The position numbers and the translations under genes were made by a program. A stretch of DNA of 16,276 bases from a virus. Below are positions 5,625 to 16,276 of the stretch, piece after piece. The notes below the pieces were generated by a model. The model was given only the letters and a program-made list of their open reading frames with translations, made no database searches and was not told the DNA's origin. The stretch lies in UHGV virus genome UHGV-0160852; one strand, 5' to 3'. Each line of letters starts with the position of its first letter. Position 1 is the first letter of the stretch.

Positions 5625-7591
5625 GCTGCCTGCTCCTCTCTGTTCACGCACATTTCGGGTAAGTTGGCGCGAACCAGCGCTTCGGCGAACGGCGGCGGGA
5701 CGGCATTGCCACAGCGCGCAACCTGCTTATCTTTCGCGTATTTCACGCCGCGGTAATCCTGGTCAATGATGTACCACTCGGGGAAGCCCTGCGCCCGGTA
5801 AAGTTCGTGTGGCTGCAGCATGCGCATGCCGATATCAACGATGCGGTAAGTCACTCCGCCGATTTCCACCAGACCGGTGCATTCCTCTCCGCAGTATTCC
5901 TGCAGGAACGACAGCACCTGCTGCGCTCGCTCTTCGTCATAGTCCTCGACTGCCAGAGTCGTTTTAACCTCGCCTACGTGCTGGCCACCAGCAGTGATAG
6001 TCGGCATCGGCTCGTCAGTGCGCTGGCCATCGCGGCATGTACCACGGAGCTTGATCAGATGAGACGTAACCATTGCGGCATCAGCCTTTGTCGTCATGGT
6101 TTGCAATGGCTCGCTAACGTCACGTGGCCTGCTCTGCCCAGCGCGACCGCCAACACCAACAATCTGAGCAGTAACCAGCGCATGATGATCGACGGTAGTA
6201 ACTGAATGAGCTGGTTCATCCAAGTCAATACCGGCGCCCTGATAATTCCCGCCATAGTGTTTCGCCAGGAATGCGGATACCAGTTGCGATTTACCGCCGC
6301 CGCCCGCGGTGATTGTTGCGCTAGGTTCATCCGCCCGGTGTCCGATGCTTGCGCCGAACTGCCGGGCGATAACCGGAGCGACGACACAGGCGCGCGATTC
6401 TTTCAGGATGGTGTGAGCGGGTTTATCGAGAGGGCGTGGTTTAGCCTGGTACTCGCTGCCGCCATTGCCAGCCAGGAACGGCGCCAGCTCTGCTTCAACA
6501 ATACCCAGAGCGTGACCATTCCCGCCCGGGCGTTTTGCGGTACCGGCCGTCACCGTCGGCAACGGATCGGTGACTTCCTGCCCGGTAGCTCCGGTTCGGA
6601 ATTTTGTCAGATGAGGTACCGCAATTGCGTAGCCGTGGGTTTTCGTAATCGTCTGTAGCGGATCGTCCAGCGCCTGTCCCCGGAAACAGTCGTAATTGCC
6701 ACGTGTCGTTGTGTGATTGCACTTCACAATGAATGGCGAAGCACTTTCGATAACAAAGCGCTGAATGCCGCGGGCAATCCGTTTTAGCGTATTCTCAGCC
6801 AGTGACTTTTTGCGACCGAAGATGCTCGGCGCGGGGATTGACCAGTCTATGCATTCCGCAGCTGTACGCCACGGCTCAAGCTGGCCCGCCAGCACGGCGG
6901 CAGACTTCGGATCCCCGTGCGTGGCTTCCGGCCAGACTATCGGTTTCCCGTCCCGGCGCATCACCATGAAGAACCGCTTACGGATGGTCGGCGCGCCATA
7001 ATCGCAGGCGCGCAGCTCGCGAAAATCGACGACATAACCCAGCCCGGCAATTAAGCGCTGGGCCTGCTCGCTATCCGGTGAAAACTCCAGAAACTCGCAA
7101 CACTCCACCAGTGCAGGATGATCTGCTGGAATACCGGTGGTAAGCATCCCGACAAATGCATTGAAAGTTTCACCGATGCGTGCCGGATCCGGGCGCATTT
7201 CTGCCGCGAGTAACGGGCCCCACGTTTTAAACTCTTCGACGTTTTCCAGCATCATGACTCGCGGGCCAACATCCAGCGCCCAACGAATGACGATCCATGC
7301 CAGCCCTCGAATAGCTTTCTCTACTGGTTTAGCACCTTTCGCTTTAGAAAAGTGACGACAGTCAGGCGAGAACCATGCCAGGCCGACAGGCTTGCCACTG
7401 GTAGCGGCTAATGGGGATACATCAAACACACTTTCGCAATAGTGAAGCGTGTCGGGATGGTTAGTGCGGTGCATAGCAACGGCGTTAACATCGTGGTTAA
7501 TAGCAATATCAACACTGCGCCCTATTGCCAGTTCAATACCTGTACTGGCGCCACCGCCGCCAGCGAAATTATCGACAATAATCTCACGCAT
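5621..7591 (-). CDS. DNA cytosine-5 methyltransferase with an unusually long, internally repetitive variable region
   Basis: Motif I FAGGGG, PC motif FSPDCRHFSKAKG, ENV motif MMLENVEEF, motif VIII-like TIRKRFFMV and C-terminal motif X CGNAVPPP. Between the catalytic halves about 350 aa carry seven repeats of (D/E)-x-P-x-x-T-[IVM]-T. Confidence 0.93.
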   Translation of the reverse strand: MREIIVDNFAGGGGASTGIELAIGRSVDIAINHDVNAVAMHRTNHPDTLHYCESVFDVSPLAATSGKPVGLAWFSPDCRHFSKAKGAKPVEKAIRGLAWIVIRWALDVGPRVMMLENVEEFKTWGPLLAAEMRPDPARIGETFNAFVGMLTTGIPADHPALVECCEFLEFSPDSEQAQRLIAGLGYVVDFRELRACDYGAPTIRKRFFMVMRRDGKPIVWPEATHGDPKSAAVLAGQLEPWRTAAECIDWSIPAPSIFGRKKSLAENTLKRIARGIQRFVIESASPFIVKCNHTTTRGNYDCFRGQALDDPLQTITKTHGYAIAVPHLTKFRTGATGQEVTDPLPTVTAGTAKRPGGNGHALGIVEAELAPFLAGNGGSEYQAKPRPLDKPAHTILKESRACVVAPVIARQFGASIGHRADEPSATITAGGGGKSQLVSAFLAKHYGGNYQGAGIDLDEPAHSVTTVDHHALVTAQIVGVGGRAGQSRPRDVSEPLQTMTTKADAAMVTSHLIKLRGTCRDGQRTDEPMPTITAGGQHVGEVKTTLAVEDYDEERAQQVLSFLQEYCGEECTGLVEIGGVTYRIVDIGMRMLQPHELYRAQGFPEWYIIDQDYRGVKYAKDKQVARCGNAVPPPFAEALVRANLPEMCVNREEQAA

Positions 7592-8537
7592 GAGCGGTCC
7601 CCCTCATGCTGCCGACCAGCCCACCAGCAACGGTGATGATTTCGCTGGTGGGCACCCGCTCCAGCCACAACTGGTTAATGTGGGCCTTCAGCTTGTTCTG
7701 CTGGGAGAATTCCAGATCCCCTGCGCCTTGTACCTGTCCGAAGATGAGACCAACTTCCAGTGGCCAGATCCGGGATTCAGCCTCAGCTAATGATGCAACC
7801 GCATCGGGGATGATCACTTCAGGAGACTGAACTGGCGAAGCTGGTGGCAGGAATTTTGCTGCAGCAAACTCAGCCAAAGCCATACTTGCGCGCCCTTTCG
7901 CCTCAAGCTCTATACGATCGATATAGCTAAAGCGCTCTCCGCACCATGTCTTATCAAATATCACGATTGCACCAGCAAAGAAGGCGCTGGTGGGTTTCTG
8001 TTTATCATCCGCCGGCACAAACCAGGTCGGGAGATCGAAACCAATACGACCACGGATAAAACACACATGATCGGCATCTTCTGGCCACCATGTCTCGCTT
8101 GTCGCTGACTTCAGCAGGAAAACATAGCGCCCGCCCTTTTCTCGCTGCTCAGATGCATAACTCATGATGTGAGTCATGCCGGTGACTGCCTGTTTTTCGT
8201 GGTACTGAGAACGGCTATACGGTGGATTACCAAATCCTGCGCCACCAAGTTCTTCAAGGCGAGCGGACCAGTCCTGTGTTAAAGCGTTATCTTCAGCGGT
8301 ATACCATGCGGGGCATTTTGCATTGCTGTCGTCTGCAAACAGGTCCAGTACAAGCGGGCCAAACATAGCGTTAACGCCCCAGAACAGCAGATCAGGGGTA
8401 CGCCATTGATCCCCGACTTCTTTTAAATAATGCGCACTACGCTGGCGCTGTTCCTCAAGTGCCAGGCAATAAGGGCTGACGGTTTTTGTTAAAGTTTGCT
8501 CTTCTGCGGTCATAGCTTCTTGTACTTCCTGACTCAT
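7584..8537 (-). CDS. phage Dam-like DNA N6-adenine methyltransferase (NPPY motif) with C-terminal extension
   Basis: WRTPDLLFWGVNAMFGPLVLDLFADDSNAKCPAWYT and GFGNPPYSR match the phage N6-adenine methyltransferase (Dam) family; 8-bp overlap with the C5-MTase start. Confidence 0.8.
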   Translation of the reverse strand: MSQEVQEAMTAEEQTLTKTVSPYCLALEEQRQRSAHYLKEVGDQWRTPDLLFWGVNAMFGPLVLDLFADDSNAKCPAWYTAEDNALTQDWSARLEELGGAGFGNPPYSRSQYHEKQAVTGMTHIMSYASEQREKGGRYVFLLKSATSETWWPEDADHVCFIRGRIGFDLPTWFVPADDKQKPTSAFFAGAIVIFDKTWCGERFSYIDRIELEAKGRASMALAEFAAAKFLPPASPVQSPEVIIPDAVASLAEAESRIWPLEVGLIFGQVQGAGDLEFSQQNKLKAHINQLWLERVPTSEIITVAGGLVGSMRGTAHA

Positions 8538-8728
8538 AGTTTTCCCCTGCGCTGATCAGCATCAACAAGTGCTCTCAGTAACCAGTAACGGCGATCAAAG
8601 CTGAAAAGGTCATTTCTGAGGAGTGCATATTTTCTGCGAAAAATAACGTCGTGCTGCCACCAGTAACGCCAGTGATGCAAACGCACAAGGCGCCGGAGAC
8701 TTATCAAAACCTTCTTCAATCGGAGCAC
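8534..8728 (-). CDS. possible small Arg/Trp-rich ORF (64 aa)
   Basis: Fills the gap between the PerC-like and Dam-like genes with an ATGA overlap, but the composition is unusual and there is no family support. Confidence 0.25.
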   Translation of the reverse strand: MLRLKKVLISLRRLVRLHHWRYWWQHDVIFRRKYALLRNDLFSFDRRYWLLRALVDADQRRGKL

Positions 8729-9174
8729 AAGTCACCTCCACAGTAATTTCCGGCCAGATAGCATGACCCGGCGGAATCATTCATGTTTCTGGCGTTTCGA
8801 ACAGAAGCATTCTTAAGACGCAGGTATCGCTCTCTTGCTTTAGCCGTACAGTTGCTGTCACAAAGTTGCTGCCATACCGTCGCCGCACGGCGGTAATAGC
8901 GTTTCTCTTCCAGCTTTTTGGCTGTCGCTTCAAGGGCAAGAATCTCCCCCGAAAGCCCACCAGGCAGGTACTCTTCAATATCGATGGATCCCGCTACGAA
9001 GTAGATAAACCCACCAGTAACTTCAACGCTGGCAAGTTCCCCGTCGTAGTAAAGGCGATGAACAGCGCTCTTCACTGTTACCGGTTTGGTTCCAGGAAAT
9101 GCAGCAGTGATATCGCGCAGCATTTTGCCGGGATTCTTCTCAATAAATTCAAAGATCGACTTGGCTATGTTCAT
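8716..9174 (-). CDS. PerC-like transcriptional regulator (N-terminal winged-helix-like segment)
   Basis: Segment AKKLEEKRYYRRAATVWQQL resembles the conserved RRAA-x-x-W core I recall for the PerC/Pch family; ATGA overlap with the replication gene stop. Confidence 0.55.
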   Translation of the reverse strand: MNIAKSIFEFIEKNPGKMLRDITAAFPGTKPVTVKSAVHRLYYDGELASVEVTGGFIYFVAGSIDIEEYLPGGLSGEILALEATAKKLEEKRYYRRAATVWQQLCDSNCTAKARERYLRLKNASVRNARNMNDSAGSCYLAGNYCGGDLCSD

Positions 9175-10082
9175 CCCCGGAACCCCCGTGGAATTGTGGT
9201 TTGTACTGGACTAATTGAATTAACATCCCGCGGTCTGGTTTTGTCCCACGACTCCCTTGGCGGGCGGCCTTTAGCATCCCAGCGGATAGCGCTTTGCAGA
9301 TATCCCTCGAATTTTTTAGGGCCGAAAAGTGTCTCGGGTCGCATGTACTGGTATTGCTCGTCGTTGCCATGCCAGTGCTCATGCTTGACGTCGATTACCA
9401 GTTTCAAGTCGCTAACGGTATGACCTTCGCGGAGGCGGGCGCGAATGTTCTCCAGTGAGGTCTTAGATTTCTGGTAACGGGAACCGCTGACCAGATTCAG
9501 GTGTGCCAGAACTTCGATCGCGTTATCGGTAATAACAACTTCATGATCCGGCTTATCGTCGGGTTCCGCTGGAGCCCGACAAGAAGGTTTTTTAGATGAC
9601 GGATCTAATGACGGATCTAATGACGGATCGCCTTCAACCATTGAGGGGTCCTCCCGCAATATTTGAGGGGGTACAGACCCATTATTTGAGGCATCAGAAT
9701 TTGACCCCTCAAATTTTGAACCCTCAAATTCTGAGGCATCAAATTTTGATTGTTCACGTGGCGTTGCGTAGAAGATTTTTGCTTCAGCTGCTGCACGTTC
9801 AAGCATGTCCACATTGAGTTTATAAACGTTCGAATTATTCTTTCCGCCAACGCGCCGTTCCTGCTTCTTCAGCCAGCCTTTAGCCTGAAGCTTTTTGATA
9901 GCGCTGCGGACAGTATTCTCGCTCTTGGCGCCGATCTGTCGCTGAATAGTGGTTACCGCTGGCCATGACACCCCTTCGTCATTACTGAAGTCTGCCAGGC
10001 GAGCCATGACCGCTATTTCAGAGATTATCAGCCCTTTGAAAGCGCATGCTTCCCATACGAGGCCGTGTAATTTACTGCTCAT
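9171..10082 (-). CDS. replication initiator / replisome organizer (O-like: N-terminal HTH, repeat-encoded linker, conserved phage C-terminal domain)
   Basis: N-terminal winged-helix region (VSWPAVTTIQRQIGAKSENTVRSAIKKLQAKGWL), low-complexity linker (SKFDASEFEGSKFEGS...DPSLDPSLDPSS) encoded by DNA repeats, and a C-terminal block (NLVSGSRYQKSKTSLENIRARLREGHTVSDLKLVIDVKHEHW) typical of phage replication proteins. Sits in the lambda O position after cro and the cII-position gene. Confidence 0.85.
   Translation of the reverse strand: MSSKLHGLVWEACAFKGLIISEIAVMARLADFSNDEGVSWPAVTTIQRQIGAKSENTVRSAIKKLQAKGWLKKQERRVGGKNNSNVYKLNVDMLERAAAEAKIFYATPREQSKFDASEFEGSKFEGSNSDASNNGSVPPQILREDPSMVEGDPSLDPSLDPSSKKPSCRAPAEPDDKPDHEVVITDNAIEVLAHLNLVSGSRYQKSKTSLENIRARLREGHTVSDLKLVIDVKHEHWHGNDEQYQYMRPETLFGPKKFEGYLQSAIRWDAKGRPPRESWDKTRPRDVNSISPVQTTIPRGFRG
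9596..9750. repeat. candidate origin of replication: GATC-bearing 12-bp tandem repeats plus direct and inverted ATTTGAGG iterons inside the O-like gene
   Basis: About 2.9 copies of GACGGATCTAAT at 9598-9630 (three GATC sites); ATTTGAGGGGG, ATTTGAGGCATCAGAATTTGA, then inverted CCCCTCAAATTTTGAA and CCCTCAAATTCTGAGGCATCAAATTTTGA at 9661-9749. Same placement as ori-lambda in the interdomain linker of O. Confidence 0.6.
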
Positions 10083-10091
10083 GGCTGCCCT

Positions 10092-10418
10092 CTACTTCCC
10101 TGAACTTGCGTTGAAACTGATCGAGTGGGCTAAAGCACTCGTGGGAATAGCCTTCCCGCAGGTAGATGACGCGACGTGTCTCAGACTCCCAGCGGATAAC
10201 TCTGACTGGATTGCCATAGTGGTCTTTGAACTTCCGGTTAACTTCTCGCATAGCGCTTTAGCCCTCCGGTTAAAGACCCCCACAACTCCGCGTGCCCGAC
10301 TGTGGTTACACTCGACCCATTTACCGCATACCATGCGCTCATACCGAAACGACGAAACGCCCGGGATCGGGTACATCCGTAGTTGCGGTAATTGAAGATT
10401 TACGATTAAATTGCTCAT
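10092..10418 (-). CDS. hypothetical protein between the cII-position gene and the replication gene (gene model unresolved)
   Basis: Only open frame covering 10252-10418 on the minus strand (ATG at 10418, MSNLIVNL...). Its C-terminal third is Ser/Thr/Ala-rich and overlaps an alternative 59-aa ORF (10072..10251, MREVNRKFKDHYGNPVRVIRWESETRRVIYLREGYSHECFSPLDQFQRKFREVEGSHEQ) that looks more protein-like. Confidence 0.35.
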   Translation of the reverse strand: MSNLIVNLQLPQLRMYPIPGVSSFRYERMVCGKWVECNHSRARGVVGVFNRRAKALCEKLTGSSKTTMAIQSELSAGSLRHVASSTCGKAIPTSALAHSISFNASSGK

Positions 10419-10423
10419 GCGGA

Positions 10424-10975
10424 TTATTTCTCCATACACAAAGATTTATTCGCCACGACGCCCGGAGCTGCACACTCGCGGGCGTCACTCTTTTCTGGCT
10501 GACAAAAGACACGGAACAGTAACGTTAAATGTTCCTGCCATTTCGCCATCACCTGATAGCTGTTCTCCTCAATTTGCTCGCGTTCTGCCTGGTCAATTAC
10601 CCCATCAGCTGTAGCTTTACGCAGGTACTGCGAGTGTTTTCCTATCCACTCAATGGACTCCATAAGACGCTGGTTAATATCTGCGTTGTCCACGTCTTCA
10701 ATATCTGCCAACGGAACAAAAACGCCGTTCGAGTGACGCGCTATAGCATTGGCAATATGATTTGACCCACCAGCACGCTGCAGCACCATTGCCCAGCCGA
10801 GAGGGAAAATCTGATCACCATCGGCACGTAAACGGTTAAACAATGCGTTTTCAGTAACGCCCAGCCACTCCGCAGCTTCCACGTAACCACCGTCCAAATC
10901 AGTGATAGTTTTTTTGATAGCGGCCACCAGCCATGCCGGCTGCTTATCTACTTTCCATTCAGGTTCGATACCCAC
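10424..10975 (-). CDS. cII-position regulatory protein (possible CII/CP76- or YdaT-like), HTH-like segment
   Basis: 183-aa ORF between cro and the replication gene; GTG start at 10975 with AAGGGG 6 nt upstream; segment AAEWLGVTENALFNRL is HTH-like. Family assignment is by position and size only. Confidence 0.6.
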   Translation of the reverse strand: MGIEPEWKVDKQPAWLVAAIKKTITDLDGGYVEAAEWLGVTENALFNRLRADGDQIFPLGWAMVLQRAGGSNHIANAIARHSNGVFVPLADIEDVDNADINQRLMESIEWIGKHSQYLRKATADGVIDQAEREQIEENSYQVMAKWQEHLTLLFRVFCQPEKSDARECAAPGVVANKSLCMEK

Positions 10976-11019
10976 GGCTTACCCCTTACTTCTGTGGTTA
11001 ATGCACCCCAAAACAATTG

Positions 11020-11220
11020 TTATTGTTTGGAATAGATATCAGGTCGAAGCTCATACTTGGTGATCGCGCCCGAGGTGTTTTTTTCCAGTTTTTTAGCCAG
11101 ATCAAACCCGGCTTTTTTGTAACCGTTGAAAACCAGACGTAGATAACCGGGAGTAGACCCAACCTTTTCAGCTAATGTGCTCTGTTGCTCTTTGGTTAAT
11201 GAATCCCAGAATTCTTTCAT
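11020..11220 (-). CDS. cro: Cro-like / YdaS-family HTH repressor
   Basis: 66 aa from the ATG at 11220 with AGGAGG 8 nt upstream; LAEKVGSTPGYLRLVFNGYKKAGFDLAKKLEKNTSGAITKYELRPDIY is a Cro/YdaS-type HTH; transcribed divergently from the repressor gene. Confidence 0.8.
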   Translation of the reverse strand: MKEFWDSLTKEQQSTLAEKVGSTPGYLRLVFNGYKKAGFDLAKKLEKNTSGAITKYELRPDIYSKQ

Positions 11221-11223
11221 GTA

Positions 11224-11301
11224 TGTACCTCCTGTGTACATATTACACGAAAGCAATGAACCTTCAAGGTACTTGTACCTTTAAGGTACATGCGGTTAAA
11301 T
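11224..11301. promoter_or_regulatory. OR-like operator/promoter region: three 17-bp TGTACC-N5-GGTACA-type operators with divergent PR and PRM
   Basis: Operators TGTACCTCCTGTGTACA (11224-11240), TGAACCTTCAAGGTACT (11257-11273) and perfect TGTACCTTTAAGGTACA (11274-11290). Minus-strand PR: -35 TTGAAG, 16-bp spacer, -10 TAATAT, then the cro SD. Plus-strand PRM: -35 TTGTAC (11273-11278), 17-bp spacer, -10 TTAAAT (11296-11301), implying a leaderless cI mRNA starting at the ATG at 11308. Confidence 0.7.
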
Positions 11302-11307
11302 TTCAAT

Positions 11308-11982
11308 ATGAAAACAATCCAGGAAATCAGGCGGTTAAACGCCAGAAAATTGCGCGATGGTGTAGGCGGGAATATCTTCTTCGCCAACATGATTGATCGT
11401 GAGCCGACTCAAACAAGCCGGTTCATGGGTGACGGTGCGACAAAGAACATTGGTGATGCTATGGCAAGACACATTGAAAAATGTTTCGACTTGCCAACTG
11501 GTTGGTTAGATCAGGAGCACCAAACTACCAATGTAGCTAAAACTCCTGACGTCTCTGATACAAGCAGGGACATCACCATGGTTCCGGTAATATCCTGGGT
11601 ACAAGCAGGAGCATGGACAGAAGCTGGCTATGCTGAGGTTGATTTGAATAGTACAGAAAACTATCCCTGTCCTGTCCCCTGTGGGCCAATGACATATATT
11701 CTTCGTGTTATTGGTGATTCAATGATCGATGAATACAGGCCTGGAGATATGATTTTTGTTGATCCAGAGATAGCTGCAGTACACGGAGATGATGTCATTG
11801 CATTGATGCATGATTCTGGTGAGACGACATTTAAGCGGCTTATTGAGGATGCAGGACAACGTTACCTTAAAGCTCTGAACTCGAACTGGCCAGAGCCGTA
11901 CATTAAAATTAATGGCAATTGTTCAATTATTGGTACTGTGATTTTTTCTGGTAAACCCAGGCGGTATAGAACAAAAATTTGA
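11308..11982 (+). CDS. cI: CI-like prophage repressor with C-terminal S24 (LexA-like) autopeptidase domain
   Basis: C-terminal RVIGDSMIDEYRPGDMIFVDP (catalytic Ser in GDSM) and ETTFKRL (Lys) are the S24 dyad; divergent from cro across operators. Start at 11308 preferred (leaderless from PRM); track start at 11290 lies inside an operator. Confidence 0.9.
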   Translation: MKTIQEIRRLNARKLRDGVGGNIFFANMIDREPTQTSRFMGDGATKNIGDAMARHIEKCFDLPTGWLDQEHQTTNVAKTPDVSDTSRDITMVPVISWVQAGAWTEAGYAEVDLNSTENYPCPVPCGPMTYILRVIGDSMIDEYRPGDMIFVDPEIAAVHGDDVIALMHDSGETTFKRLIEDAGQRYLKALNSNWPEPYIKINGNCSIIGTVIFSGKPRRYRTKI

Positions 11983-11996
11983 CCGTTAACAACAGA

Positions 11997-12019
11997 CCTG
12001 CTTCGGCAGGTTTTTTTAT
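11997..12019 (+). terminator. rho-independent terminator after the repressor gene
   Basis: Stem ACCTGC / GCAGGT with TTCG tetraloop followed by TTTTTTT, 15 bp after the cI stop. Confidence 0.8.
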
Positions 12020-12022
12020 ACT

Positions 12023-12056
12023 TGACAATGTACCCATTCGGTACATAATGTACCTA
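12023..12056 (+). promoter_or_regulatory. PL-like early promoter with OL operator: -35 TTGACA, 16-bp spacer, -10 CATAAT, overlapped by TGTACCCATTCGGTACA
   Basis: Near-consensus sigma70 hexamers at 12023-12028 and 12045-12050; the 17-bp palindrome at 12030-12046 has the same TGTACC-N5-GGTACA architecture as the OR sites, plus an extra GTACC half-site at 12051-12055. Confidence 0.65.
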
Positions 12057-12117
12057 AAAGAAACAGCGGACAGGTAGGATGATTCGCTAAGCAACATACC
12101 AGTAGAGGTATCTCAAG

Positions 12118-12207
12118 ATGGACAAAGCATACGAAGAATATTTTGAAGGTCTGGCGGAAGGTGAAGAAGCTCTGAGCTATGCCGAATTCGTCGAAGCACT
12201 TTCCTAA
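12118..12207 (+). CDS. possible 29-aa acidic peptide (MDKAYEEYFEGLAEGEEALSYAEFVEALS)
   Basis: First ATG after the predicted PL start site, with AGAGGT about 9 nt upstream; below the ORF-track length cutoff. No family support. Confidence 0.2.
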   Translation: MDKAYEEYFEGLAEGEEALSYAEFVEALS

Positions 12208-12921
12208 ACATGGCGAAAGCCGACAGCGTTGAAGGCGATTTTCTCGGTTTGCGCGCTAAACAATAGCGGGGGTGAAATCGGGGCGGAGAAGCAGAATCCG
12301 CGATGTCGGGACTTGATACTTCCGGCCATACCAACAAGCCGAATGATCGCGTAACGATCCTTTGCATCTGCCCCGGCGAGGTGGCGCCGCCGGACCGGGG
12401 TAGATGAATCGTAAACAACATGAAAGCGCATTCCATCTTCCATCGGTCGTGGGGATCGGTTTGTAACTGAAGGAGTGCGCTTCCAGTTGTGAACGGCAAT
12501 ATTCACAACCGTTGTATGGCACATGCAGCGTTAGCAGCCCGGATGGTTCCCTTGAAGTTCCATGCGCTATCCGGACAACTGGAATGTGCAAGCCAAGTGT
12601 TTCAGGCACGACGTGCGCCCCACCAGCGCGGCGAAATGGTGTGACGCCCGGGAAGAGTCCGGGACACAACAGGTAAGAGCACTCCCGCCACACGATGCTG
12701 AAACCCAAGCGCCATGTGGATGCGCCGAAAAGCTACGACGGGGCGTTGGTAGAAGATCGGAGTGCTCTTTCCGTTGTGGTAATTGCGGCTATGCGCACGT
12801 GACGAGCTAACCCGTTCATGGAATGCGTTTCCGGGCAGTGTGACGTCGTCGGTTATTGGCTAAACCCGGCAGGTGGAGGCACCACCGCCACAACTTAGTT
12901 AACTGTGCTGTGTGTAGTCTT

Positions 12922-12991
12922 GGCGGTTATCCAGTTTTCCACTATCCAAAGGAGGAAGAGGATAACGTTCTGATGGATAACCGCCCTTTTT
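12922..12991 (+). terminator. long hairpin (11-bp stem GGCGGTTATCC / GGATAACCGCC) followed by CTTTTT; possible attenuator
   Basis: Perfect 11-bp inverted repeat with a ~42-nt loop; the loop holds a second copy of GGATAACG that could pair with the 5' arm instead, giving mutually exclusive structures. Confidence 0.35.
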
Positions 12992-13096
12992 ACACAATAC
13001 AAAAGAGCATCACCGGGCGACGGGCTCATTACCCAATCCACCCGGGCGGCATCCAAACCGCAGGTGCTCTTCTGTGTTGTGTACGGAGAAATTCCC

Positions 13097-13115
13097 GGCG
13101 GTGGCAGCCGCCTTT
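13097..13115 (+). terminator. short GC hairpin (GGCGG-TG / GGCA tetraloop) followed by TTT, about 15 nt upstream of the first early gene
   Basis: 6-bp G/C stem with only three trailing T; a weak terminator or structural element overlapping the approach to the gene's ribosome-binding site. Confidence 0.3.
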
Positions 13116-13130
13116 CGAGAGGGTAAAACC

Positions 13131-13502
13131 ATGAGTAATGATCGCATGACAGTCGTGCCCGATTTCCTGGGTGAACTGGACGCCGGCGTATTCATGAACA
13201 AGATTGCGGCGGCTCTTAATACCACCGCGCTCGGCGTTCTGAACAATGGCAACAAAGGCAAGGTTGTCCTCACCTTTGATTTTGAGCGTATGGGCAACTC
13301 TGTTGAAGAGAAGCGCGTCAAGATCAAGCACAAGCTGAACTACAGCACCCCAACTCCCCGCGGCAAAGCGTCGGAAGAGGACACCACCGAAACACCAATG
13401 TGGGTTAACAAAGGCGGCAAGCTCACAATCCTGCAAGAGGATCAGGGGCAACTCTTCGGTATCACCGGCGCGGTGGACGGAAAGCTTAAAGCGGCTCAGT
13501 GA
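13131..13502 (+). CDS. hypothetical early protein (123 aa), first gene of the PL operon
   Basis: ATG at 13131 with GAGAGGG 7 nt upstream; protein-like composition. Size and position resemble yfdP of the E. coli CPS-53 prophage, from memory only. Confidence 0.75.
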   Translation: MSNDRMTVVPDFLGELDAGVFMNKIAAALNTTALGVLNNGNKGKVVLTFDFERMGNSVEEKRVKIKHKLNYSTPTPRGKASEEDTTETPMWVNKGGKLTILQEDQGQLFGITGAVDGKLKAAQ

Positions 13503-13558
13503 ACCGCACGTACAAATTCACTGATACCACTTCGCTAATCAGTTAATAAGGAATTTTT

Positions 13559-14386
13559 ATGTCTCAGTTAGACAGCGGTACTTTTCAGCAGGTTAAAGAC
13601 CTCGTGCTTTCCGGGTATCACCTGAACGATATCCACGGCCTGGCCTGTCCAACCGCCCTGCTACCGCAGAATACCAACGTTGAAAGCCTGGAGCGTTTTG
13701 CTCTTGAGCGTTTCCGTTTCCGCGGTGCCATGGACACGACCAGCATTGATGATTTCGTTCGCTATTCTGTCGCTTATGCCCAGGAAGAAGAAAAAGCACG
13801 TTGCTTTATTGATGCCGATAACATGCTGGCTCGTTCTATCTTCAATATCGGCACGTTGGACAACCCAGGCCACGCTGATAACGTCGCCTCGATCAAGCTT
13901 AAGAAGACAGCGCCCTTCCGCGCGTTACTGGCGATCAACGGCGATCACCTTAATCAGAAGCAAATCGCCGAATGGCTCGAAGACTGGAGTGACTATCTCA
14001 CTGCGTTCGATTCCGACGGACAGACAATGAAAATTGCACAGGCAGCGCAGGCGGTTCGCCGTGTCACTATCCAGCAAACTAATGCCGCCGATCATGAAGA
14101 CGGTGATTTCAGCGGCAAAAAATCGCTGATGCAAAGTATCGAAGCCAGCAGTAAAGATGTTATGCCGGTCGCGTTTGAGTTTAAGTGTGTACCCTATGAA
14201 GGCCTGGGCGAACGTCGTTTCAGTCTTCGCAATAGCCTGCTCAAAAGTAGCGATCCGGTATTCGTCCTGCGTATCGTCCAGCTGGAAGCCCTGGAAGAAG
14301 CGATCGCCAATGAGTTCCGTGATCTGCTGGTTGGCAAGTTCGACGGCAAGCCGGTAGAAACCTTTATCGGCAACTTCAAGGCCTGA
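13559..14386 (+). CDS. YfdQ-like (DUF2303-type) prophage protein
   Basis: 275-aa ORF with AAGGAA about 7 nt upstream; sits immediately before an HD-domain gene, matching the yfdQ-yfdR order and sizes I recall for the CPS-53 prophage. Not verifiable without a search. Confidence 0.8.
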   Translation: MSQLDSGTFQQVKDLVLSGYHLNDIHGLACPTALLPQNTNVESLERFALERFRFRGAMDTTSIDDFVRYSVAYAQEEEKARCFIDADNMLARSIFNIGTLDNPGHADNVASIKLKKTAPFRALLAINGDHLNQKQIAEWLEDWSDYLTAFDSDGQTMKIAQAAQAVRRVTIQQTNAADHEDGDFSGKKSLMQSIEASSKDVMPVAFEFKCVPYEGLGERRFSLRNSLLKSSDPVFVLRIVQLEALEEAIANEFRDLLVGKFDGKPVETFIGNFKA

Positions 14387-14515
14387 TTGCTCTCCATTAA
14401 ATCCCCGTCGTTGAGGGGATTTATTAAAGCGTAATCCTGTAATTAATCGCCACCTGGCGAGGGATTCCTACACCCAAAAAACAGCGCTGTGCAGGCGTAA
14501 AGTATGGAGAAAATA

Positions 14516-15043
14516 ATGAGCTTTATTCAAACCTTTTCAGGCAAACATTTTAACTATCTCGACATCCAGCAAGACGCCATCGAGATCGAAGATATTGCTA
14601 ATGCACTCTCGAACATCTGCCGCTTTGCCGGTCACCTGCCTGAGTTCTATAGCGTCGGCCAGCACAGCGTTTTAACAAGCCAACTGGTACCTCAAGAATT
14701 TGCGCTTGAAGCGCTGCTGCATGACGCCGCCGAGGCATATTTGCAGGATATCCCTGCCCCATTAAAACGCCTTCTTCCTGACTACCGCGCAATTGAAGAT
14801 CAGGTTGATGCAGCTATTCGCCAAAAATTCGGCCTGCCGGCTGTGCAGCACCCGACCGTTAAATATGCCGACCTGGTGATGCTGGCCAGCGAACGTCGCG
14901 ACTTTGAGATCGACGACGGCACCCACTGGCCGATGCTCGACGGCGTCATTCCTACTGACCAGTTTGTGATTAACCCCGTCCGCCCGGGCCAGTCTTACGG
15001 CATGTTCATGAACCGCTTTAACCAACTGATGGAGCGGCGCTAA
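14516..15043 (+). CDS. HD-domain phosphohydrolase, YfdR-like 5'-deoxynucleotidase
   Basis: HD-domain metal-binding pattern (CRFAGH...GQHS...LLHDAAEAY...D) in a 175-aa protein beginning MSFIQTFSGKHF; start at the ATG at 14516 with GGAG 6 nt upstream (track start 14504). Confidence 0.88.
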   Translation: MSFIQTFSGKHFNYLDIQQDAIEIEDIANALSNICRFAGHLPEFYSVGQHSVLTSQLVPQEFALEALLHDAAEAYLQDIPAPLKRLLPDYRAIEDQVDAAIRQKFGLPAVQHPTVKYADLVMLASERRDFEIDDGTHWPMLDGVIPTDQFVINPVRPGQSYGMFMNRFNQLMERR

Positions 15044-15243
15044 TGGCACATGTGAAAGTGAAAGAATTAGTTGCTGCAGCATACGCTACAGCACCTGACC
15101 TACCACCAGCAGCAGCACAATTAATGCAAGACATAGCGTCAAGGCTGGATGTGACCTTTGTCGCCCTTACAGAGGCAATGGACCAGAACACCGCTATGGC
15201 CGCGATGATAGCGAACCTGAGCGAGGAAAACAGAAATGGCTAA
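15043..15243 (+). CDS. small hypothetical protein (66 aa), translationally coupled on both sides
   Basis: TAATG overlap with the HD gene stop and an 8-bp overlap with the next gene start; Ala-rich, no family. Confidence 0.55.
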   Translation: MAHVKVKELVAAAYATAPDLPPAAAQLMQDIASRLDVTFVALTEAMDQNTAMAAMIANLSEENRNG

Positions 15244-16021
15244 AAACTCGATCGATGCTTATGGCGCCAGCGGCAAGACAAACGTTCTGATGTTCGAGCC
15301 GGAAAATCTGCATATTGTCACTGACAAGGCCCACCCGCTTTACGATGAGCGAGTCAATCTGCCGATCGATGAAGGGATGGTGTTGAATATCAAAGAGCTG
15401 GGTGTTCTTGAGCCGATTATTGTCTGGAAAGACCCTGAAAAGGGGCTCACCTGTGTGGTTGTCGGTCGTCAGCGCGTTAAACATACGCTGGAAGCCAATA
15501 AGCTCCTGCTGAAAGAAGGCAAAACACCGCTGCTTGTTCCTGGAGTCGTTAAGCGTGGTTCGGCAAACCAAATGGCCAAATATATGGTCAGCGAAAACGA
15601 AATCCGCCGACCTGATACGCCATTAGGTCGAGCTAAGAAAATGTCAGACGCGCTGGATCGTGGTCATGACGAGGACGACCTTGCGGTGTTGTTTGGCTGT
15701 AGCGTTCAGACTGTCCGTGCAACGCTGTCACTACTCGATGCTACCCAGGCTGTTAGGGAGGCGGTAGAGTCTGGCACAGTTACCGTTACCCAGGCGCGTC
15801 AGCTTGGCGCGCTACCACCTGAAGAGCAGCGGGCAAAAGTGGCAGAAATCGAGCTGGCGACAGCTGGAACCAAAGGCCATGAAAAATCCCGTCGGCAGCG
15901 TCAGGTTCTCGGTGAGGCAAAACCGCGCATCAAATCACGTAAGGAAATCACAAAAGCCCTCGAAGATGCCAGCGGCGAATATGCCGAGGCTCTGCTCTGG
16001 GTACTTGGGGAGGCGAAATGA
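15236..16021 (+). CDS. ParB-like N-terminal (ParB/Srx nuclease-fold) domain protein
   Basis: LGVLEPIIVWKDPEKGLTCVVVGRQRVKHTL resembles the ParB box region (QPI-V-R ... GERR-RA), followed by a helical, basic C-terminal half. Confidence 0.75.
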   Translation: MAKNSIDAYGASGKTNVLMFEPENLHIVTDKAHPLYDERVNLPIDEGMVLNIKELGVLEPIIVWKDPEKGLTCVVVGRQRVKHTLEANKLLLKEGKTPLLVPGVVKRGSANQMAKYMVSENEIRRPDTPLGRAKKMSDALDRGHDEDDLAVLFGCSVQTVRATLSLLDATQAVREAVESGTVTVTQARQLGALPPEEQRAKVAEIELATAGTKGHEKSRRQRQVLGEAKPRIKSRKEITKALEDASGEYAEALLWVLGEAK

Positions 16022-16152
16022 ACTTTGAACCTGAAAATTACAGCCGGCGCGCCCTTCTCTGGTTTGCTGCACTGGTCAGTGTTGTCGGGTGGGTTGTAGT
16101 AGTCGCTGTAATCTTGGGCGTATGCATGATGATCGAATGGGTGACGGCATGA
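16018..16152 (+). CDS. possible 44-aa single-pass membrane peptide (MNFEPENYSRRALLWFAALVSVVGWVVVVAVILGVCMMIEWVTA)
   Basis: ATGA overlap with the ParB-like gene stop and a hydrophobic helix of about 22 residues; below the track length cutoff. Another ATGA-coupled tiny ORF starts at 16149. Confidence 0.4.
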   Translation: MNFEPENYSRRALLWFAALVSVVGWVVVVAVILGVCMMIEWVTA

Positions 16153-16276
16153 ACATCGAAACAGTAAACGAGCTCATTCAGTCGCTGGAGTCGGCGGGCC
16201 CATAAAGCAGCGGACCGCTCACAAAATCATAAATGTGTTTCATACCCGACTCACGAACAGCAACCCCCAGGAACAA

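Follow-up and report, generated by a model that had tools for sequence, protein, structure and literature searches.

The yfdPQR cluster is common in the early-left operons of lambdoid phages, and its function is not known (PMC12315714). The sole functional lead on these genes comes from Escherichia coli, where YfdR binds domain I of DnaA at Phe46, competing with DiaA and DnaB, and where multicopy yfdQRST inhibits initiation, for which YfdS or YfdT is required (PMC4776307). This binding and the dNMP phosphatase activity are known for E. coli YfdR only; the effect on initiation was seen on overexpression only and may be an artefact according to the authors, and deleting these genes from E. coli was without effect (PMC4776307). 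A preliminary description of the virus DNA UHGV-0160852 (16,276 nt, one strand; hereafter the window) had stated this YfdR-DnaA binding and the inhibition correctly. It proposed that homologues of these genes, a ParB-like protein and a small membrane peptide form one chain of overlapping genes, which could serve host takeover or anti-defence under the control of a long leader. Are these genes indeed one functional unit, and what could they do for the phage?

A putative repressor-controlled early-left operon

On the plus strand, the operon is preceded by a cI-type repressor gene at 11290-11982, whose LexA-like product matches the S24 peptidases (Pfam Peptidase_S24, E = 2.4e-25); the gene at the same position of an E. 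coli locus (L001) is annotated as 'LexA family transcriptional regulator'. Two exact TGTAC-N7-GTACA dyads at 11224-11240 and 11274-11290, between a cro-like gene and cI, are candidate OR-type operators. Such exact sites occur three times in the window against 0.23 expected, and the third (12029-12045) lies within the spacer of a predicted PL-like sigma-70 promoter (12022-12049, plus strand, TTGACA-16-CATAAT), which is near consensus with 11 of 12 matches. This promoter is located just past a predicted intrinsic terminator (11994-12013, plus strand, an 8-bp stem followed by TTTTTAT) that would end the cI transcript. The assignments of promoter, operators and terminator rest on sequence patterns. 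Because an operator dyad sits in its spacer, the promoter is presumably repressed in the lysogen. The minus strand of the window carries cro-like, CII, replication, Dam and C5 methylase, RusA and Q genes. Among E. coli and Klebsiella relatives, the gene order is repressor, yfdPQR, exonuclease, xis and int, with xis and int ending the same-strand operon. The promoter past cI, the overlapping operator and the co-orientation of the genes agree with a PL-type early-left operon. The initially proposed early-left position, here downstream of a repressor, is upheld by the repressor match, the annotation of the E. coli locus, and the predicted promoter and operators. The window ends at 16276, and genes farther downstream lie outside our view; one relative has genes for a dATP/dGTP pyrophosphohydrolase and an Rv2179c-like exoribonuclease there, both nucleotide-handling.

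The ORF listing contains the six plus-strand ORFs between 13131 and 16152 at the positions previously described. Of the claimed chain of overlaps, the three named ones are present (TAATG at 15041-15045, 8 nt at 15236-15243 and ATGA at 16018-16021), but they are confined to the last three junctions among the six genes, from 15043 onward, whereas yfdP, yfdQ and yfdR are separated by spacers of 56 nt (yfdP-yfdQ) and 129 nt (yfdQ-yfdR), the latter containing a hairpin. Tight co-translation may therefore hold for the last four ORFs only and not for the yfdP/yfdQ part. Another overlap, the fourth, is an ATGA at 16149-16152 that opens an 18-codon plus-strand ORF (16149-16205). This ORF was probably shortened by a mosaic junction near 16200, because the gene at this position in relatives encodes 102-138 aa. 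Rather than a single unit, the genes constitute three separable modules: the YfdP-YfdQ pair, the HD enzyme YfdR, and a trio of a small protein, a ParB-like protein and a peptide.

The YfdP-YfdQ pair and YfdR

The suspected homology to YfdP, YfdQ and YfdR was confirmed by protein searches. The yfdP homologue (13131-13502, plus strand, 123 aa, PHROG 204) is 59% identical to K-12 YfdP, with similarity over the full length (E = 2e-49). The 123-aa proteins at the yfdP position in relatives bear the precomputed Pfam label PF27127 YfdP, and a YfdP profile built from 57 sequences found no Pfam or PDB relative. The yfdQ homologue (13559-14386, plus strand, 275 aa) shares 57% identity with K-12 YfdQ (E = 1e-112) and is a member of Pfam DUF2303 (PF10065), scoring 215.6 bits (cutoff 26.6) over residues 31-273. 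Its sequence also matches PDB 9o7m, 'YfdQ Protein' (E = 1e-108), the sole deposited YfdQ entry, which consists of 36 chains and for which we found no paper. An AlphaFold2 model of YfdQ reached a mean pLDDT of 87, only with a diverse alignment from a profile of distant phage homologues; an alignment of at least 87%-identical sequences resulted in a pLDDT of 36.5, and a mixed-profile homologue search added little diversity. The fold libraries searched, which did not include 9o7m, contained no solved structure resembling the predicted YfdQ fold.

The two genes are found together. In four distant groups, the Pseudomonas, Xanthomonas, Vibrio and Halomonas phages, yfdP adjoins yfdQ on its 5' side, and the two proteins occur in 180 and 181 records, respectively, of the phage collection. 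A yfdP-type gene before yfdQ, a pairing criterion of the present analysis rather than a published one, is likewise found in the window. YfdP and YfdQ are an obligate pair across proteobacterial phages, from Vibrio to Xanthomonas.

The yfdR homologue (14516-15043, plus strand, 175 aa, with an alternative ATG at 14504) is 66% identical to K-12 YfdR (E = 1e-90) and falls into PHROG 318, deoxyribonucleoside 5' monophosphate phosphatase (E = 6e-97). The metal ligands H...HD...D align with those of the Atu1052 structure (2gz4). By sequence comparison, YfdR is a predicted HD-domain deoxynucleotide phosphohydrolase with intact metal-binding residues. We classed it as YfdR-like and not as YfbR, because it scored below the cutoffs of both the Pfam YfbR-like model (21.1 versus 25.9 bits) and the NCBIfam 5'-deoxynucleotidase model (17.9 versus 122). 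Since YfdR is present in 283 phage records, including Bacillus and Caulobacter phages, it is an independent and widespread module. Between yfdQ and yfdR, a plus-strand intercistronic hairpin (14385-14436; -21.9 kcal/mol, z = -3.25) has a core stem at 14403-14424, in which compensatory changes preserve the pairing in K-12 CPS-53 and phage phiNP.

In E. coli K-12 CPS-53 (KplE1), yfdP, yfdQ and yfdR have the same order and spacing as in the window, alongside the protein identities given above and the conserved hairpin. Unlike the window, CPS-53 has YfdS (DUF551) and YfdT in place of the 66-aa protein, the ParB-like protein and the 44-aa peptide, and it is a decayed remnant with no repressor gene or leader annotated beside yfdP, whereas the immunity region of the window is intact. 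[quoted passage not shown] The early-left operons of ST64B (sb35-37), phiNP and LLS (gp37-39) likewise hold the three-gene cluster directly past the repressor and match the window at about 78% nucleotide identity, but they lack the ParB trio and have other downstream genes. The yfdPQR homologues in the window are real but ordinary.

The ParB-like trio

The trio starts with a gene for a 66-aa protein (15043-15243, plus strand, PHROG 12248), which shows no similarity to YfdS or YfdT and 32% identity to a 99-aa protein ahead of ParB in the Klebsiella phage KpF5. The second gene (15236-16021, plus strand, PHROG 1033) encodes a predicted ParB/Noc/Spo0J-like DNA-binding protein of 261 aa with a ParB-type helix-turn-helix (HTH_ParB, 40.4 bits, cutoff 22.6). 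It matches Noc/Spo0J structures with E = 4e-6 and aligns with Noc over residues 44-236. Both results support the initial designation as ParB-like. Like the CTP-dependent clamps ParB, Noc, Spo0J and KorB, the protein has a putative N-terminal ParB-type domain followed by the helix-turn-helix, an ENxxR motif (ENEIRR against ENLQRE in Noc) and the final arginine of a GxxR motif. Unlike them, it is encoded in an early operon of an integrating phage, coupled to a membrane peptide. CTP binding is uncertain because GRQR replaces the GERR of Noc and no Pfam ParBc match was found; all NCBIfam ParB matches stayed below the curated family cutoffs. The ParB-like gene overlaps by ATGA with that of a 44-aa hydrophobic peptide (16018-16152, plus strand, PHROG 2936, E = 1e-24), which consists of a single long hydrophobic stretch as read from the sequence, in keeping with the small membrane peptide noted before.

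KpF5 and P7641, both Klebsiella phages, share the ParB-like protein (89% identity), the 44-aa peptide (54%, located after ParB in KpF5), a related small protein upstream and short pieces of the leader, but have RdgC in the slot occupied here by yfdPQR. yfdPQR and the ParB trio are thereby shown to be exchangeable modules. The suggested functional tie between the ParB gene and yfdQR did not stand, as the trio is an independent module that lies 3' of RdgC in these two phages. ParB-like proteins of about 50% identity occur in Burkholderia phages such as phiE125 and KS9. The identical protein was found in 309 blocks of a public assembly collection, and the gene order was kept at all four places inspected.

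A conserved leader upstream of yfdP

The predicted promoter is separated from yfdP by a conserved non-coding leader of about 1.08 kb. Right after the promoter, a possible 29-codon acidic ORF (12119-12208, plus strand) was read from the sequence, an uncertain assignment, and the homology block common to the relatives starts at its stop codon, at 12207. From there to 13130 on the plus strand, each block is 92-100% identical in the eight or nine relatives compared, except for a cassette at 12672-12772. The leader is considered non-coding because single-base indels among relatives argue against coding. We also considered a decayed gene, and rejected it on account of these indels and the absence of any trace of the ClpX zinc-finger gene that E. 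coli has there. Likewise, a known RNA was rejected: no Rfam family matched at gathering scores, with weak DicF matches only, and the folding of the whole leader was not unusually stable (z = -1.6 and -1.2).

Two elements stand out in the leader. The exchangeable cassette (12672-12772, plus strand) is bounded by an inverted repeat forming a closing stem of about 20 bp, CACAAC-GGTAAGAGCACTCC ... GGAGTGCTCTTTCC-GTTGTG, and in relatives the same arms flank unrelated inserts. An additional cassette and a tRNA-like gene are present in one relative (L018); ARAGORN found no tRNA in the window or the relatives. The other element (12906-13001, plus strand) is DicF-like, with a single-stranded 5' segment, a 12-bp stem and a terminator-like U-run. 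It is 100% identical in 8 relatives, folds with z = -4.0, and can be aligned with K-12 dicF and a normal-sized copy in phiNP, where yfdP is likewise preceded by about 1 kb of unannotated sequence and the DicF-like hairpin. Like the window element, the dicF sRNA of the E. coli Qin prophage, located in the dicB early-left operon, consists of a hairpin and U-run with a similar 5' single-stranded segment, and both lie in the leader of an early-left operon under repressor control. The window element differs in a loop that is 22 nt longer, and its Rfam DicF (RF00039) score of 16.5 bits, like the 20.5 bits for phiNP, is below the gathering score of 48, which places it outside that family. The middle of the leader (12207-12900) is specific to Klebsiella and sets the window apart from ST64B, phiNP and LLS. 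Gating of operon expression by the leader, as initially suggested, is plausible.

Possible roles of the operon

We consider it likely that the region is the promoter-proximal part of a repressor-controlled, PL-type early-left operon belonging to a lambda-like prophage that is common in chromosomes of the Klebsiella type, silent in the lysogen, in which YfdR acts against DnaA and the ParB-like protein serves as a clamp. The operon would be off in the lysogen and transcribed upon induction or infection, when the terminator-like DicF-type leader hairpin and the hairpin after yfdQ could set the amount of transcript for each module. Early in lytic growth, YfdR, possibly aided by YfdQ, might interfere with host DnaA and the deoxynucleotide pool, as its CPS-53 orthologue suggests. 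As YfdR is 66% identical to its E. coli counterpart, it may not have retained the binding to DnaA. The ParB-like protein would be a site-binding and probably CTP-dependent DNA clamp or regulator rather than a partition protein.

A stronger version, in which the operon is a full functional equivalent of CPS-53 yfdQRST that takes over the host by blocking DnaA-dependent initiation at oriC while the ParB trio stands in for YfdS/YfdT, seems unlikely to us. The orthology of YfdQ and YfdR, the competition of YfdR with DiaA and DnaB at Phe46 of DnaA (PMC4776307), and an early-left position suited to a function needed at lytic onset are all consistent with it. Against this, the 66-aa protein is unlike YfdS and YfdT, both of which are absent from the relatives searched, the ParB trio is found without yfdQR in other phages, and the published effect is the overexpression phenotype that may be an artefact (PMC4776307).

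It is rather unlikely that YfdP and YfdQ, occupying the slot of RdgC or a Rec module, are accessories of DNA recombination or repair, or serve superinfection exclusion, by acting on DNA ends or RecA. RdgC does occupy the equivalent slot in KpF5 and P7641, phage LLS has the yfdPQR cluster and no Rec module (PMC12315714), yfdQ was reported to raise resistance to methyl methanesulfonate (PMC4776307), and in Xanthomonas and Vibrio phages the genes downstream include those for a recombinase, exonuclease, SSB or Rad52. But the YfdQ and RdgC profiles are dissimilar (hhalign probability 0.1), and the cluster is also present in phages with a complete Rec module (PMC12315714).

Decidedly unlikely, in our estimate, is a reading centred on RNA: the leader would be a modular scaffold that also controls read-through and from which a DicF-type sRNA and exchangeable cassettes (tRNA-like ones in relatives) are processed out of the early-left transcript, while YfdP-YfdQ would form a two-protein machine specific to phages, its fold unmatched by the solved structures of the searched libraries, which together with YfdR would brake DnaA-dependent replication of the host.

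Early phage regions often hold counter-defence genes. The anti-defence role raised in the preliminary description, in which the HD hydrolase would remove a nucleotide signal or toxic nucleotide of host immunity and YfdPQ or ParB would neutralise DNA-targeting defences, could draw on this and on the relative with the pyrophosphohydrolase and exoribonuclease genes downstream. Yet it found no support and is very unlikely. PADLOC, which covers defence systems and not counter-defence, matched none of the six proteins to a defence model, no sequence or fold link to known counter-defence proteins was found, and YfdR belongs to a deoxyribonucleoside 5'-monophosphate phosphatase PHROG rather than a cyclic-nucleotide phosphodiesterase family, which leaves genome position as the one argument in its favour. 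Finally, that the ParB-like gene is a true partition gene of a prophage able to persist as a plasmid is extremely improbable despite database records labelled 'partition protein', since the window has no ParA-like ORF and no parS-like palindrome near the ParB gene, the protein scores under the cutoffs of all curated ParB families, and the relatives sit integrated within chromosomes of 6 Mb, their xis and int genes ending the same operon.

Implications

The operon in the window is routine prophage content, and its yfdPQR cluster had been noted before as common in lambdoid early-left operons. Nevertheless, YfdP-YfdQ emerges as a widespread, obligately paired phage module with a predicted fold for which the libraries searched hold no solved match. 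The leader with its exchangeable RNA cassette and DicF-like hairpin is the oddest part of the region and merits a separate study; should the RNA-scaffold reading be true, the first products of the operon may be RNAs. For the role of these genes in the phage, an intact inducible Klebsiella prophage that carries the operon would be more suitable to study than CPS-53, which is decayed.

Results

The sequence surrounding the operon at 13131-16152 on the plus strand is the immunity and early region of a lambdoid prophage. The minus strand carries a cro-like gene together with genes for CII, a replication protein, Dam and C5 methylases, RusA, KilA-N, DUF968 and the Q antiterminator, and an S24 repressor gene (11290-11982, plus strand) lies upstream of the operon. 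An E. coli relative has the same gene order as the window and continues to exonuclease, xis and int; Klebsiella-type relatives also share the order and likewise continue. The assembly collection index contains the exact sequence of the ParB-like protein in 309 blocks. All four places inspected were on large contigs, which in two cases were complete 6-Mb chromosomes, and had an identical gene order with differing repressor alleles. The prophage carrying this operon is common. In the related locus L017, the rest of the early-left operon (7303-11923) encodes, listed here by gene order, an Ea22-like protein, an HNH protein, a dATP/dGTP pyrophosphohydrolase (PF04447), an Rv2179c-like 3'-5' exoribonuclease, xis and int, a series of genes for nucleotide handling.

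The first three genes, yfdP (123 aa, 13131-13502), yfdQ (275 aa, 13559-14386) and yfdR (175 aa, 14516-15043), encode proteins 59% (E 2e-49), 57% (E 1e-112) and 66% (E 1e-90) identical, respectively, to those of the E. coli K-12 cryptic prophage CPS-53 in direct comparisons, confirming the homology that the preliminary description had proposed. YfdQ belongs to DUF2303, well over the Pfam cutoff. YfdR falls into the PHROGs family of deoxyribonucleoside 5'-monophosphate phosphatases, and its His, His-Asp and Asp residues align with those of the HD protein Atu1052. An alternative upstream ATG of yfdR at 14504 would be the less likely start, as the MSFI methionine is where K-12 YfdR and the genes called in relatives start. 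Sequence comparison of the 66-aa protein (15043-15243) with YfdS and YfdT revealed no relationship. The 261-aa protein (15236-16021) has a ParB helix-turn-helix domain over the Pfam cutoff, and the Noc and Spo0J structures align to its residues 44-236, including the N-terminal domain. Its motifs are GRQR and ENEIRR, compared with GERR and ENLQR in ParB, and it is under the cutoff of every curated ParB family. The 44-aa product (16018-16152) is essentially a single hydrophobic helix and a member of a phage family without assigned function in PHROGs.

The six genes had been described as a chain of overlaps implying tight co-translation, but this holds for only half of the operon. The TAATG, 8-nt and ATGA overlaps are the last three junctions, whereas the first three genes are separated by spacers of 56 nt (yfdP/yfdQ) and 129 nt (yfdQ/yfdR) without any overlap. 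The latter spacer contains a conserved hairpin, whose stem is preserved by compensatory changes in K-12 and the lambdoid phage phiNP, and which probably gives the two halves of the operon different expression levels. A further ATGA overlap after the 44-aa peptide gene leads into an ORF of 18 codons, which has 102-138 aa in relatives. Past ~16200 the window diverges from all relatives, and a minus-strand ORF (16178-16276) enters from its right end; 16149-16276 probably contains a mosaic junction.

The distribution of the genes among phages is modular. A yfdP-like gene is located 5' of yfdQ in Pseudomonas, Xanthomonas, Vibrio and Halomonas phages, and YfdP and YfdQ are distributed almost alike across the phage collection, with 180 and 181 records. 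The YfdR HD enzyme is distributed differently and more broadly, its 283 records extending to Bacillus and Caulobacter phages. The trio of ParB-like protein and two small partners also occurs in the Klebsiella phages KpF5 and P7641, in which RdgC occupies the place of yfdPQR alongside the trio, and the ParB-like protein alone is found with ~50% identity in Burkholderia phages. The ParB gene thus belongs to a module of its own beside the yfdQR system and does not extend that system.

A YfdQ model from a shallow alignment was useless, whereas a diverse alignment of distant homologues produced a confident model (pLDDT 87, pTM 0.77). A profile comparison for a relationship of YfdQ to RdgC was negative. 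Using the YfdQ family profile (window 13559-14386), we found a sole PDB entry by sequence, 9o7m, entitled 'YfdQ Protein', which is missing from the fold-search libraries and for which our literature search found no publication. It contains 36 chains of the 274-aa E. coli protein in a single entry, suggesting a very large assembly. For YfdP, neither a matching chain in the PDB nor a detectable relative of known function was found.

Between the repressor and the operon, a strong terminator pattern at the repressor gene end (11994-12013) is directly followed by TTGACA-16-CATAAT (12022-12049). Three exact copies of the dyad TGTAC-N7-GTACA are present in the window, where 0.23 would be expected; two of them are situated between cro and cI, and the third falls within this promoter's spacer. 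The placement suggests that 12022-12049 would be a PL-type promoter closed by the prophage repressor. A further dyad, in the opposite arrangement (GGTAC-TT-GTACC, 11266-11281; GGTACA-TAA-TGTACC, 12040-12054), shares positions with the operator dyads, and each operator region (11224-11290 and 12029-12057) may hold overlapping sites. Directly past the PL-like promoter is an acidic 29-codon ORF (12119-12208, MDKAYEEYFEGLAEGEEALSYAEFVEALS) with a GAGG ribosome-binding site; the block homologous to relatives begins at its stop codon.

No credible gene was found between ~12055 and the start of yfdP at 13131. From 12207 onward, this leader is 92-100% identical, block by block, across nine related contigs, and its blocks 12207-12671 and 12773-13130 are conserved at least as well as the genes downstream. 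The relatives are set apart in it by single-base indels, a pattern that speaks against coding. Folding of the whole leader gave no unusual stability. Between the two blocks, an exchangeable cassette closed by a conserved ~20-bp stem (12672-12772) has its contents swapped between phages; in most relatives the insert is unrelated and includes two T-loop-like hairpins (GGTTCGATTCC). The related locus L018 contains one more cassette as well as a tRNA-like gene with an extra arm of ~60 nt, which scores 40 bits, over the Rfam tRNA threshold; ARAGORN called no tRNA, this gene included.

The segment 12906-13001 is 100% identical in eight relatives, compared with 79-99% for the neighbouring genes. It folds into a DicF-like element, with a single-stranded segment, a 12-bp stem and a U-run, and aligns to dicF of E. 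coli as well as to a phiNP copy of normal size. Its Rfam score of 16.5 bits against a threshold of 48 does not assign it to DicF. From the presence of a terminator-like element within a long untranslated leader, we infer that read-through is regulated. Two octamers resemble boxA: TGCTCTTT (12763-12770), identical to the rrn/P22 boxA core, and TGCTCTTC (13066-13073), after which a GGCGG/CCGCC hairpin lies immediately ahead of the yfdP ribosome-binding site. They may be chance occurrences, the expectation for the window being ~0.5 exact octamers.

Discussion

The paper on YfdR and DnaA to which the preliminary description had referred does exist: E. coli YfdR binds DnaA via Phe46 of domain I, and yfdQRST in multicopy inhibits initiation (PMC4776307). 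Host takeover is a plausible role, but it is weakened by the absence of YfdS and YfdT, neither of which was found in the window or its relatives, so that the replication phenotype is not simply transferable. The suggested anti-defence role has no support. Defence-system models did not match the operon proteins, and none of these proteins could be linked to known counter-defence families. A 2025 survey reported the three-gene cluster as fairly common in lambdoid early-left operons, with unknown function, and found distant ParB relatives in such operons as well (PMC12315714).

The best reading of the region is an early lytic operon of three modules. The HD enzyme, perhaps together with YfdQ, would target host replication and deoxynucleotides, and the ParB-like protein could be a regulator or a clamp binding DNA; to the third module, YfdPQ, we assign no role. 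The operon is a real but ordinary find: it adds one more example, with its own specific mosaic combination, to a known prophage gene cluster that is widespread. The part best deserving separate study is the conserved non-coding leader.
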